Of a DNA stretch of 64,000 nt, positions 3,036-15,278 are shown one piece after another. Below the pieces are notes generated by a model, which was not told the DNA's origin, searched no databases, and worked only from the letters and a program-made list of their open reading frames with translations. Both the position numbers and the translations under genes were made by a program. Every line of letters starts with the position of its first letter. Positions within the stretch are counted from its first letter, which is position 1. Source of the DNA: a virus (lineage: Duplodnaviria > Caudoviricetes); IMG/VR virus record IMGVR_UViG_3300031993_000045, positions 21,237 through 85,236 of that record. The stretch is one strand, 5' to 3'.

Positions 3036-3521
3036 TTAATTTGCCAAGTCCTTGTGTGGATCTTCTGCAATAATTTCTATAGATACACCACGATGGTCTC
3101 TTTGTGTGAGTTCTGCATACTCTAACACGGCTTCTTTTGGAGCTCTAAATGTTATAGTATCTGGATTTGTATCTATACAATCCTTTGCTTCTTTCAAGCA
3201 GCATTCACAACACTCTTTTAAGACTTTTACAGCCCATAATCTATCGTTGCTAATATCTCTGATTCGTGCAACTACAGTTGGCTTTTTGTTTGACGGACAG
3301 TTCATGTCTACTCTCCACCAAACTTCGTTCTCGCTCGAAAGCAAATCGCTGATGTCATCTTCTGTGGTCTCTACGGAAGGAGTTTTTTCTAGTTCATGCT
3401 GTAAACCGTTAATTACGGTTATAGCTTTACACTTTGGTCCTCCTTTGAGATCCTCCCTGGAAAATGTAACAGTGAACCCTACAGGTTCTTTTACACAAGT
3501 TGAAATTTTGATAATTTTCAT
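3036..3521 (-). CDS. protein with ribosomal L7/L12 C-terminal-like domain
   Basis: RLWAVKVLKECCECCLKEAKDCIDTNP aligns by eye with the bL12 CTD ([27 protein letters not shown]); LKEAKD at 3180-3197. Confidence 0.55.
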   Translation of the reverse strand: MKIIKISTCVKEPVGFTVTFSREDLKGGPKCKAITVINGLQHELEKTPSVETTEDDISDLLSSENEVWWRVDMNCPSNKKPTVVARIRDISNDRLWAVKVLKECCECCLKEAKDCIDTNPDTITFRAPKEAVLEYAELTQRDHRGVSIEIIAEDPHKDLAN

Positions 3522-3652
3522 TTTGCTTTATATTTTTAGTTAGACATGTGAGTTCATACAAAAACCTACCGATTCTCACGAACAGGTAGGAAAATTAAAC
3601 AAAAAAGTCGTTCAACAAAATAAAACCCATTGTTTGAAGTAGTCATGAATTG

Positions 3653-3723
3653 TTGTCTCACAAGGATTCGAACCTTGTCAAACAGAACCAAAACCTGTTG
3701 TGCTACCATTACACCATGAGACA
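3653..3723 (-). tRNA. trnQ: tRNA-Gln(TTG)
   Basis: TGTCTCA TG GTGT AATGGTA GCAC A ACAGG TT-TTG-GT TCTGT TTGA CAAGG TTCGAAT CCTTG TGAGACA A; full cloverleaf. Confidence 0.92.
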
Positions 3724-3874
3724 AGACCCCAACTTTAAAAGTTGGCTGTTATTTTGCAGAAAACAGATGTGTCTGATGTAAAAAGTATCACCCACTCTCA
3801 CGAGCAAGTGATACAACTCCTTTTATTTTTGAGTCTTAAACCTTGTTAAAGGCGTATACCGCTGTATACATTTG

Positions 3875-3929
3875 TGGAGAATGTGGGACTCGAACCCACT
3901 GAGACCACCTAGCCTGGGTCGTATTCTCC
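3875..3929 (-). ncRNA. 55-nt tRNA-like RNA lacking an anticodon arm
   Basis: GGAGAAT/ATTCTCC 7-bp acceptor stem, A73, D-like arm GACC-CAGGCTAGGT-GGTC, canonical T-arm GTGGG-TTCGAGT-CCCAC. Confidence 0.55.
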
Positions 3930-4163
3930 GAAACGCAGGTTCTCGAATTTCTTACACGCTCTGAGCTACCTGCAAACCGTTAAGCGTGATATTTTTTAGT
4001 TTTAGAATAAACTACACCTATTCTCACGAACAAGTGTAGTAGAACTATTCATTAAATCATTAAAGAAGAAATGGTATTGTTCTCACGAATTATACCATCT
4101 AACGCTTGAATATTGCTTGCTACTAAACAAAAACCTATAATAACATGCATTCTAAAACCCAAG

Positions 4164-4277
4164 TGGACTACTATGGACCCGACCCATAGAAATGTGCGAG
4201 TATAATTGAATAGTTAGTTCAATACACATCCGCTGCCAATCATCATACTGTAATTGTATGACAATTCCAACTAGCCC
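4164..4277 (-). ncRNA. 114-nt structured RNA with a tRNA-Ala/tmRNA-like acceptor minihelix
   Basis: 5' GGGCTA pairs with 3' TAGTCC-A (G3:U70-like pair, A73); 6-bp T-like stem CTATGG-GTCGGGT-CCATAG; internal hairpins TCATAC/GTATGA and ATTGAA/TTCAAT. Confidence 0.45.
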
Positions 4278-4419
4278 AAGTTAAAAACACACCGATCTTC
4301 ACAGACAGGTGTGAAAGATTATTACGAAAAACACTTTTTCCTATAGAAACTGAAACTACTTTCACAAGCAGTTTGAGCTAAGACGAAAATCTGTAAGAAA
4401 ATCTTTCCAATAGTAGTTG

Positions 4420-4512
4420 AAGGAGTAGACGGGTTTGAACCGTCGACCTCTGGATTATGGTGCATCTTTGTCATCCATATGATCCAGCACTCTACCGCTG
4501 AGCTATACTCCT
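4420..4512 (-). tRNA. tRNA (Met/Ile2 CAT-like) with a 28-nt anticodon loop (about 21-nt insertion)
   Basis: AGGAGTA/TACTCCT acceptor, GCTC-AGCGGTA-GAGT D-arm, CTGGA/TCCAG anticodon stem around 4455-4482, GACGG-TTCAAAC-CCGTC T-arm. Confidence 0.7.
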
Positions 4513-4928
4513 GACCACCCTTACGGGATAAAACTAATCTTTTAATCACTTTCTTAACCACAAGCCAACACGTGTGCTACGGACCAAGCGTCCTGGACTT
4601 ACGAAACTTGTGCACAGTCTACTTCCATGTTTACTTTAACGAGAAGCTAGGAAGGTCCTAAAAACTGCTACTTCGTTATTTTCGTGTTATTTATTAAGGA
4701 TTGTAACTAATTGATTAGGTTTGCAGGTGTGATATTTAATTTTGAGAGTAGCCTCGCCTATCGCGTTTAGCAGGGCACGTCCTACACTTTTTATCAGACT
4801 GATCCTCCCATATCTTAACTGAACTGTCGAGGTCCATGCGGGTCTCTCCTCGGGAACAGCTAATATTTTCCACATTATCACTATCATAAACTCGCACCTT
4901 TACTTTAGCAATAATATCCTGCAGTTTG

Positions 4929-5008
4929 TAGACACGCTGGGAATCGAACCCAGATTAACCATTCGGTCTAAGGGAAATGGATACACTATCTTCACAGACT
5001 GTGTATCC
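4929..5008 (-). pseudogene. degenerate tRNA-like element overlapping a GUGA hairpin
   Basis: canonical T-arm CTGGG-TTCGATT-CCCAG (4937-4953) and a 3' acceptor strand; the 5' part cannot form a cloverleaf. Confidence 0.4.
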
Positions 5009-5056
5009 TACGTTCAAATGAAAAACGTAATAAAAACTAAAACTTTTATGCCCCAA

Positions 5057-5329
5057 TTATGATTTTTTAGCTTTTTCGATTAACCAGCGCTCCATCCTGG
5101 TTTTTTCGGATGGGGCTGCTGGACGGAATTGGTCAATAGTTCCGTAGACTAGTTTATAATCGTCATTGTGAACGATCATACCGACTCCGTATCCTGGTAC
5201 ACCTTTATTACCATTGGTTAGTATGGCAAAATAATGTACTCGGTTTTGTTCATCAACATGATGGACCTTTACGATGGTGCCATCATTATGAACGATGTTT
5301 TGTCCGTATCGTATGTCATTTTTCTTCAT
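5057..5329 (-). CDS. hypothetical protein (90 aa)
   Basis: tiled ORF, TAA stop. Confidence 0.7.
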   Translation of the reverse strand: MKKNDIRYGQNIVHNDGTIVKVHHVDEQNRVHYFAILTNGNKGVPGYGVGMIVHNDDYKLVYGTIDQFRPAAPSEKTRMERWLIEKAKKS

Positions 5330-14879: not shown

Positions 14880-14951
14880 CTCGGGATAGTGTAAAGGTAA
14901 CATACTAGGCTCATAATCTAGAGAGTGAAGGTTCGACTCCTTCTCCCGAAA
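14880..14951 (+). tRNA. trnM: tRNA-Met(CAT) with initiator-like C1xA72 mismatch
   Basis: CTCGGGA/TCCCGAA acceptor, CTAGG CT-CAT-AA TCTAG, GAAGG-TTCGACT-CCTTC; lacks the three G-C anticodon-stem pairs of true fMet tRNAs. Confidence 0.85.
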
Positions 14952-15102
14952 CACTGCTTGTACTAGAATACGACGAAATAGGAACAAGAGTCATTGAGCG
15001 GGTCGTAACGCTGCGAATGGTTGGTGGATGGTTAAACAGAGCATCTGATACGGGTACCAACACTTATCTTGTGTCGTGGTCTACACAAGATCGGAAAACC
15101 TT

Positions 15103-15138
15103 AGAGCAAAGACGGGAGCTCTTTAAAAAACGCCCGTC
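15103..15138 (+). other. H-type pseudoknot just upstream of the suppressor tRNA
   Basis: S1 AGAGC/GCTCT, S2 GACGGG/CCCGTC, A-rich loop TTAAAAAACG. Confidence 0.5.
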
Positions 15139-15141
15139 CAA

Positions 15142-15213
15142 CGCCCACTGGTGTAATGGCTAGCACAGAAGGCTCTAACCCTTTTAGTCTGGGTTCGAAT
15201 CCTAGGTGGGAGA
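15142..15213 (+). tRNA. amber suppressor tRNA (anticodon CTA), Gln-type body
   Basis: GAAGG CT-CTA-AC CCTTT anticodon arm; D-arm TGGTGTAATGGCTAGCAC nearly identical to the tRNA-Gln(TTG) at 3653-3723; T-arm CTGGG-TTCGAAT-CCTAG. Confidence 0.92.
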
Positions 15214-15278
15214 CAAACAAAACTAACAGCATCCCGTAAGATCTGCTTTAGTTCATAATTTTTGAAATTAAAAGTAAT

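Follow-up and report, generated by a model that had tools for sequence, protein, structure and literature searches.

A conserved GUGA-loop hairpin frames exchangeable tRNA and tRNA-like modules in a crAss-like phage

Crassvirales are among the most abundant gut viruses, and their early and non-coding expression is largely obscure. We know of no Hfq or ProQ in the Bacteroides clade. In other systems, transfer RNAs (tRNAs) act as punctuation or as processing handles, examples being mitochondrial transcripts, MALAT1-mascRNA, the tRNA 3'-trailer small RNAs of E. coli and the T4 tRNA cluster with its stable RNAs. T4-type phages are said, in work by Arbiol, Comeau and Krisch in 2010, to possess PeSL cassettes that carry an early promoter and flank protein genes. 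In Bacteroides itself, a terminator hairpin closes the FopS small RNAs of the host (PMC11697453). Here we describe a ~1.45-kb island in which seven hairpins of one type separate tRNA and tRNA-like RNA modules along the - strand. The island lies inside a block of small - strand genes in a stretch of 64,000 nucleotides (nt), hereafter the window, which comprises bases 21237-85236 of the 85-kb IMG/VR virus record IMGVR_UViG_3300031993_000045 (completeness estimate 84%). No credible open reading frame (ORF) is present from the stop at 5057 to the start at 3521 (window coordinates). The major capsid protein is 83-88% identical to those of Suoliviridae (Oafivirinae) crAss-like phages, e.g. cr272_1, cr130_1 and cr131_1.

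The earlier note on this DNA had described six hairpins, each with a GTGA loop on a 3-bp stem, and all six are present on the - strand where it placed them. A scan for GTGA loops with paired arms recovered these together with a seventh of the same type (hp2; Table 1), bringing the total from six to seven. All fall within 1.45 kb, and nothing comparable was found elsewhere. The loop stands on a 3-bp stem in 7/7 copies and a G·U pair lies directly below that stem in 6/7, the position being occupied by A·C in hp4. As had been claimed, the basal stems vary yet stay paired, with 92% of 77 pair cells paired across the seven copies. In a loop-anchored alignment GTGA alone is invariant. Both sides have changed in 25 pair cells, whereas shuffling predicts 8.1 such cells and 0/500 shuffles gave as many as 25. 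Conservation of pairing among the seven copies is thus far beyond chance. Folding energies range from -10.5 to -18.5 kcal/mol (z-scores -3.3 to -5.7). R1, a covariance model built from the seven window hairpins, scores them at 38.4-43.4 bits, the next best score in the window being 16.8 bits, and found no further copies over the remaining 21 kb of the record. The U-rich tails ascribed to most copies are real but uneven: U5 follows hp3, hp6 and hp7, and weaker runs follow hp1, hp2, hp4 and hp5. The hairpin itself has no match to an Rfam family, and we came across no account of the motif in papers on crAss-like transcription, Bacteroides transcriptomes, RbpB and theta ribozymes.

In a covariance-model scan of related phages, which the earlier note had proposed, R1 detected several clustered copies in 12/12 complete relatives, including one at just 62% capsid identity. 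A family alignment of 39 copies defines the unit as a variable basal stem of 5-9 bp, a C-G or U·G pair, a mostly unpaired step and a G·U wobble, surmounted by a 3-bp pyrimidine/purine (Y/R) stem and a GUGA loop; a 3' UA comes next, usually with U4-6 after it. Across this alignment 92.5% of cells are paired and 145 are altered on both sides, compared with 43 expected. Pair 11-22 is G·U in 37/39 copies and pair 9-24 is U·G in 15/39. The apical stem covaries between UUC/GAA, UCU/AGA, CUC/GAG, CCC/GGG and CUU/AAG; the loci were gathered mostly via one apex variant, and counts of the variants are therefore biased.

The 15-mer GGTTCGTGAGAATAG is present in >109 IMG/VR contigs of 19-370 kb, belonging to crAss-like and unrelated phages. 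When 119 GGTTCGTGAGAATAG sites were picked regardless of their flanks, 106 possessed a basal stem of at least 5 bp, as against 0.7% by chance, and most were recovered by R1. Among species-representative bacterial genomes the 15-mer followed by T5 occurs at 34 places, ~29 of them in Bacteroidales, and several of these sites resemble phage contigs or prophage tRNA arrays. Cultured crAss001, a member of another family, carries one copy (GG-UCU-GUGA-AGA-UAG) at 1881-1911 of MH675552, 3 nt before the annotated tRNA-Glu start. On the Bacteroides sp. KFT8 chromosome (L215, L219 and L223; L numbers denote collected loci) three paralogous hairpins close capsule (CPS) operons: a shared ~60-nt element precedes a CG/UG-UCU-GUGA-AGA-UA/UC hairpin, with a U run after 2/3.

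The position and strand of the motif were assessed for 163 non-redundant hairpins collected from all loci, for which the reversed-sequence control gave 0; gene calls were simple ORF scans. Long ORFs contain 6/163. Looking upstream, one first meets a co-oriented stop in 41 cases and a divergent start in 2; looking downstream, a co-oriented start in 42 and a convergent stop in 10. Distances to tRNAs show sharp peaks: a tRNA 3' end precedes the hairpin by 20-75 nt in 20 cases, and the hairpin precedes the next tRNA 5' end by 0-15 nt in 19. T accounts for 65-76% of bases at positions +1 to +4 past the stem, and at least 4 T occur in the first 6 nt after 100/142 hairpins away from tRNAs and 6/19 abutting them. 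The sequence upstream is rich in U and G and shows a 3.5-5 fold enrichment of GTTTT, TTTGT and TTCAT. Large gene-free gaps hold 56% of hairpins vs 49% of gap bases, a modest enrichment that was not used further. Since the wobble pairs fit the sense strand and orientation follows transcription, we take the signal to be read as RNA, or conceivably as the non-template DNA strand.

We propose that a single punctuation hairpin, acting at the RNA level, recurs seven times in the island; it would be read on the sense transcript, each copy marking where a small-RNA unit ends on its 3' side. At copies with a U tract, the host RNA polymerase would most likely terminate in a leaky, factor-independent manner, and in all cases the upstream RNA would be left with a stable stem-loop end. 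The invariant apex (G·U, unpaired step, 3-bp Y/R stem, GNRA loop and UA) may constitute a recognition surface for a putative factor. The tRNA and tRNA-like modules, possessing an acceptor stem and T arm, would be excised by RNase P and RNase Z, whose cutting would also define the ends of the flanking RNAs. That the hairpin is a leaky terminator or 3'-end cap punctuating the array, with its apex kept for recognition by a factor, has in our judgement about an even chance of being correct. Features that fit a factor-independent terminator are the U tracts, a location behind genes, the ten copies at convergent junctions and the three paralogous ones at CPS operon ends. Among the features of an intrinsic terminator, the stable stem-loop and co-oriented 3'-end position are there, and in the window U5 follows 3/7 copies.

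Several observations weigh against termination. A U tract is present in just 6/19 copies right before tRNAs, and the crAss001 copy has AAAAU instead; because many tRNA-adjacent copies are without a U tract, termination is not a universal activity of the motif. In three relatives an R1 hairpin with UUUUUAAC lies within the intervening segment of the transfer-messenger RNA (tmRNA); the coding piece, whose 5' end is GGGC, starts 10 nt after it. Were the tmRNA transcribed as a single precursor, the polymerase would have to read through the internal hairpin and its U5. Furthermore, downstream modules and the next gene begin 10-44 nt past the hairpins of the window, which leaves no room for a promoter, and efficient termination would silence the downstream units. 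An invariant apex is unnecessary for plain terminators, and the apical stem UUC/GAA is not the most stable choice. Finally, the possibility of a general host terminator was rejected because a loose form of the pattern is no commoner than its reversed control in 150 Bacteroidota genomes. Given the U-less copies, the intra-tmRNA hairpins and the close downstream starts, efficient termination cannot be the whole explanation.

Much of the same evidence would suit a hairpin that is mainly a processing or protein-binding signal, its G·U/GNRA apex being recognised by a host or phage RNA-binding protein or endonuclease that sets or protects RNA ends. The products would then be a U-rich single-stranded 5' part joined to the hairpin, the build of FopS and of tRNA 3'-trailer small RNAs, and the tRNA-like modules would be handles for release by RNase P/Z. 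An invariant apex above variable basal stems is consistent with such a role, as are the U-less copies 2-7 nt before tRNAs, the hairpin within the tmRNA intervening segment, the U/G-rich upstream regions with their enriched pentamers, and the retention of the trailer before hp4 where the upstream module has been swapped (see below). The genome's real permuted two-piece tmRNA, located 2.4 kb before the window (G000:C1 ~18.4-18.8 kb; L267), points the same way. In this genome and in relatives the tmRNA coding piece is directly followed by a tRNA or tRNA-like structure, an arrangement consistent with tRNA punctuation and one which suggests that tRNA shapes serve as processing handles.

Seeds of the host small RNAs also bear on such a role. 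The FopS/GibS-type seed GUGUUUUUCAU precedes some phage hairpins, and a perfect seed (GTGTTTTTCATGGTA) stands right before a phage-type hairpin in L186 (~4030-4110) and L104 (~5090-5170); in L104 the seed and hairpin lie between two tRNAs and may represent a tRNA-trailer-derived small RNA. Seed-like sequences were nevertheless found in just 13/151 cases, and the seed was rejected as a general partner of the hairpin. Within the window they precede only hp3 (1 mismatch) and hp1 (2 mismatches); GTGTTTTTCGT at 4334-4324, before hp3, resembles the host seed, yet it is unconserved in L235 and not significant in the window. Additionally, no protein partner or cleavage site is known, the U-richness may reflect composition alone, and most copies bear a terminator-like U tract. 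We regard a role chiefly in processing or protein binding as the main rival reading, though on the unlikely side.

A more elaborate proposal is that the island is a factory of hairpin-ended small RNAs, by which phages from many lineages plug their regulatory RNAs or decoys into the host small-RNA machinery. The tRNA-like modules would be exchangeable RNase P/Z handles that free U-rich trailers capped by hairpins of the FopS/GibS build. A Bacteroidales factor would bind the apex, and targets might include A-rich start-codon regions, e.g. those of SusC-type transporters. Taken jointly, these suppositions are speculative and we think them improbable.

Of the mechanisms put forward in the earlier note, a terminator or processing signal thus fits the co-orientation, the U tracts and the convergent junctions, and a promoter role, with the virion RNA polymerase recognising the hairpin, is disfavoured. 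Denatured DNA serves as a template for the crAss-like virion polymerase, for which no promoters are known (10.1101/2020.03.07.982082). A hairpin extruded as single-stranded DNA could in principle be such a promoter, with small RNAs starting a few bases after it, and RNAs do begin 2-12 nt past many hairpins with G as the first base. The G·U pair and the U·G pair would, however, become A·C mismatches on the template strand; because these pairs form on the sense strand only, a template-strand hairpin promoter is unlikely. The motif is also present in non-crAss phages and at host CPS operon ends, copies at convergent junctions number ten against two at divergent ones, and no copy is found where the - strand block begins, near 14-15 kb. 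Published work on phi14:2, a crAss-like phage, reports no common motif upstream of its early transcripts. An N4-type hairpin promoter was accordingly rejected on both template-strand pairing and position, and we consider a promoter role of the extruded kind very improbable. The host promoter box TAnnTTTG (Bacteroides -7) was found within 30 nt upstream of 6/150 hairpins and was likewise rejected as a general feature.

Comparison with orthologous islands revealed how the hairpins and the intervening RNAs have evolved. The gene following the island (3036-3521, - strand) encodes 161 amino acids with a weak match to the ribosomal L7/L12 C-terminal domain (23.9 bits, cut-off 25.9). Relatives of this L12-like protein at 75-89% identity were found in ENA and Logan assemblies of uncultured phages, and their contigs yielded four orthologous islands (L235/L236, L239 and L245/L246). 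These emerged from protein database searches and contig look-ups; flanking-protein searches of IMG/VR and JGI contigs returned no direct relatives. A nucleotide search of the island against GenBank phages matched at the tRNA-Gln only, and the closest IMG/VR relative by capsid has almost no island sequence in common.

Seven hairpins are kept in L235, five in L239 and six in L245, and their stems have changed by compensatory substitution. In hp1, basal and apical pairs are altered in L235 and L245, the apical UCU/AGA becoming UUU/AAA. The basal stem of hp3 is wholly altered yet paired in L235, L239 and L245, and that of hp7 is altered yet paired in L239, L245 and other relatives. The apical stem of hp6 has passed from CUC/GAG to CCU/AGG in L235, L239 and L245, and in L245 a single pair of hp5 has changed in compensatory fashion. 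Across orthologous hairpins the G·U, GUGA and UA remain unchanged. Conversely, the slots between hairpins hold different modules. After hp3, the window, L235 and L239 share the fold of a 114-nt RNA, whose arm 1 shows compensatory changes and whose 3' two-thirds are identical; L245 has an unrelated tRNA-like module. After hp5, a mini-tRNA is found in the window and L239, an 88-nt tRNA in L235 (Rfam 36.7 bits) and another mini module in L245. L235 has one additional tRNA, and the window ~160 additional bases. Judged from these alignments, the island is a conserved hairpin frame with exchangeable cassettes. The idea of a modular small-RNA locus bounded by a shared structured signal is accordingly well supported by the compensatory conservation of the hairpins and the exchange of modules.

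Such exchange raises the question of a role in DNA. The hairpin might be chiefly a recombination module for tRNA or small-RNA cassettes, akin to PeSL cassettes or integron attC sites. Hairpins and adjoining trailers are kept where the same slots hold different modules, the left breakpoints fall at the U tracts of hp3 and hp5, and the motif is common to unrelated phages across the 19-370 kb size range. Moreover, eight independent assemblies (L237, L238, L240-L244 and L247) break 77-200 nt upstream of the L12-like gene, five of them at exactly 186 nt, that is, at the distal end of the island around hp7; these breaks suggest repeat-driven or population-level heterogeneity. Against this, the right breakpoints lie at module 3' ends and not at hairpins. 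The basal stems differ from copy to copy, so that only ~15 nt are held in common and homologous exchange has little to work with, and the strict G·U and strict co-orientation with transcription favour an RNA role. No recombinase is linked to the motif, though none was looked for. A chiefly recombinational function appears quite improbable to us, although such a role may coexist with termination or processing.

Table 1. Hairpins and intervening modules of the island, in - strand order (window coordinates; bits for hairpins are R1 scores)
Feature	Coordinates	Strand	Description
hp1	4979..5008	-	AG-UCU-GUGA-AGA-UA; 38.4 bits; 48 nt past upstream ORF stop
T-arm minihelix	4929..4970	-	Canonical T arm CUGGG-UUCGAUU-CCCAG and short imperfect acceptor-like stem
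Non-coding stretch	4720..4928	-	~87% identical to L235; contains the relaxed-ARAGORN tmRNA 'tag' frame
~160-nt segment	4560..4719	-	In window, absent from L235 (alignment)
tRNA with 28-nt anticodon loop	4420..4512	-	Rfam tRNA 55.5 bits; 21-nt insert 4478-4458
hp2	4348..4379	-	UG-CUU-GUGA-AAG-UA; 39.5 bits; unnoticed in the earlier note; kept in L235
hp3	4288..4313	-	UG-UCU-GUGA-AGA-UC; U5AAC tail; 43.3 bits; next RNA 10 nt past stem
114-nt RNA	4164..4277	-	Cloverleaf-shaped, four-way junction; ends pair GGGCUA/UAGUCC, G3·U70, A73
U-rich trailer	4099..4163	-	Precedes hp4; last ~35 nt conserved even with upstream module swapped
hp4	4071..4098	-	AA-UUC-GUGA-GAA-CA; 40.2 bits; sole copy without G·U; kept in four relatives
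hp5	4011..4040	-	UG-UUC-GUGA-GAA-UA; 42.8 bits; tandem with hp4, stems 30 nt apart
5' part of slot after hp5	3930..4003	-	Conserved in window, L235 and L239
mini-tRNA	3875..3929	-	7-bp acceptor stem, D-like hairpin, canonical T arm, no anticodon arm; A3-U70
Small AGCG-loop hairpin	3854..3869	-	Right after mini-tRNA; stem covaries among relatives, GUAUAC/GUAUAC vs CACAC/GUGUG
hp6	3785..3814	-	UG-CUC-GUGA-GAG-UG; U5 tail; 42 bits
tRNA-Gln (UUG)	3652..3723	-	Normal; ARAGORN; Rfam 60.7 bits; 7-bp hairpin before it, 3745-3729
hp7	3565..3590	-	UG-UUC-GUGA-GAA-UC; U5 tail; 43.4 bits; 44 nt before next gene start (3521)

The order of modules in the island agrees with that first described: the T-arm minihelix, insert-bearing tRNA, 114-nt RNA, mini-tRNA and tRNA-Gln were all found (Table 1), and their functions are read from shape alone. 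That the locus makes tRNA mimics or decoys, as the earlier note suggested, is a conjecture; the modules vary between lineages, and one abnormality, the 21-nt insert, belongs to this phage only. An Rfam search over 3300-5300 at E up to 10 returned only tRNAs and weak GibS and tmRNA fragments. The T-arm minihelix folds no better than shuffles (z -0.7), and is identical in L235 and similar in L245. Relaxed ARAGORN reads 4512-4420 as tRNA-Met(CAT) with a 21-nt intron. Its orthologues in L235 and L239 are insert-free (Rfam 55-58 bits, ARAGORN anticodon ATT), so the insert is private to the window phage; it makes the anticodon arm a long hairpin and may be a recent disruption. Odd anticodon loops were also seen in orthologous tRNAs (L235 3915-4082 and 4563-4650; L239 93-165), which ARAGORN assigns ATT and AAA and in which C rather than U precedes the anticodon. 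The 114-nt RNA has a minimum free energy of -35.4 kcal/mol (z -3.4), has no Rfam match and is not called as a tRNA. Nor is the mini-tRNA called as one; Rfam matches it weakly to tmRNA, in the tRNA-like domain (17.9 bits).

Relaxed ARAGORN also called 5022-4596 as a pseudogene of a degenerate permuted tmRNA. This candidate was rejected: Rfam RF04321, with a cut-off of 47, scores it at 19.2 bits, A3-U70 would stand in place of G3·U70 in its acceptor stem, and its 'tag' frame is unconserved because the L235 frame stops after 6 codons. Suoliviridae relatives (L042, L045, L046, L047, L050 and L052) carry a circularly permuted two-piece tmRNA, at Rfam scores of 50-56 bits in three. The relatives' tmRNA has the tag GNYNVVDYTHVA; for the relatives and this genome together, the tag reads G/D-NYNVVDYTHVA. 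The placement of hp3 before the 114-nt RNA matches that of the hairpin before the tmRNA coding piece in the three relatives described above.

Other observations concern the relatives and the surrounding genome. An unannotated gap of cr130_1 holds four clustered hairpins, and a RAGATH-1 hammerhead ribozyme (74.7 bits; NC_055901.1 76228-76304; L071 2729-2805) directly adjoins one of them. In a crAss-like relative at greater distance (L051 1347-1419, - strand), ARAGORN calls a tRNA with a four-base anticodon (tgta) 6 nt past a hairpin. In the late genes on the + strand of the window TAG is read as sense, and a tRNA with a CUA anticodon is present at 15142; this suppressor tRNA adjoins a tRNA-Met (14880-15214). 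From 15.8 kb onwards, long late ORFs on the + strand appear only with TAG as sense, one exceeding 3200 amino acids at the window end.

The hairpin represents a compact, sequence-searchable signal common to crAss-like and unrelated Bacteroidales phages, to crAss001 and to some host operons and small RNAs. As such, it offers a concrete way to approach the formation of RNA 3' ends, RNA processing or the binding of factors in Bacteroides, and helps to delimit phage small-RNA genes and to explain the exchange of tRNA and tRNA-like cassettes. If the apex does bind a factor, it could provide an engineering part for Bacteroides and an annotation marker for phage RNA islands.

Set beside known systems, the hairpin is like an intrinsic terminator in its stable stem, the U tract of most copies, co-orientation and placement after genes and at convergent junctions. 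It differs in that its apex is sequence-invariant, its G·U is obligatory and many copies are U-less; moreover, copies are followed by the next RNA after 0-15 nt, and some are contained within a tmRNA precursor. Lambda nut boxB, to which the apex had been likened, is also a small GNRA-type hairpin on a phage early transcript, but the analogy fails on copy number and position, there being seven phage hairpins in 1.45 kb, after genes; these also carry a U tract and a G·U step. No N-like protein was found and no boxA either, though no search aimed at boxA was made. With the PeSL cassettes, as these are reported, the island shares a short conserved stem-loop that brackets variable modules in a hyperplastic early region, together with module exchange; its modules are RNAs, however, and no promoter was found upstream of the hairpins. 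In systems of tRNA punctuation, tRNA-shaped elements similarly stand between other RNAs, and by analogy those of the island could recruit RNase P/Z, whereas the conserved phage hairpin has no counterpart there. Ribozyme-associated gut-phage islands (RAGATH; theta ribozymes, PMC10879173) are likewise gene-free islands of small structured RNAs beside phage tRNAs, but within 3300-5300 there is no ribozyme match.

The host small RNAs GibS (RF04182) and FopS (PMC7366714, PMC11697453) come from the same host clade and, in the copies from a Bacteroides genome, have the same build, in which a G·U and a 3-bp Y/R stem rise from a basal stem and a G-rich loop, UAG and Us follow. Membership of the GibS/FopS family was rejected, since the GibS matches of the window reach 30.5 and 29.7 bits where the gathering score is 115. 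The host loops are of 5 nt (GGGAU, GUGAU) and R1 detects one host copy, weakly, at 20.5 bits. The phage copies, by contrast, occur in arrays beside tRNA-like RNAs, and the apex is not singled out in PMC7366714 or PMC11697453. Several FopS-like hairpins of a Bacteroides genome and the first internal GibS hairpin nonetheless possess the phage build, e.g. UG-UCU-GGGAU-AGA-UAG and UG-CUC-GUGAU-GAG-UAG.

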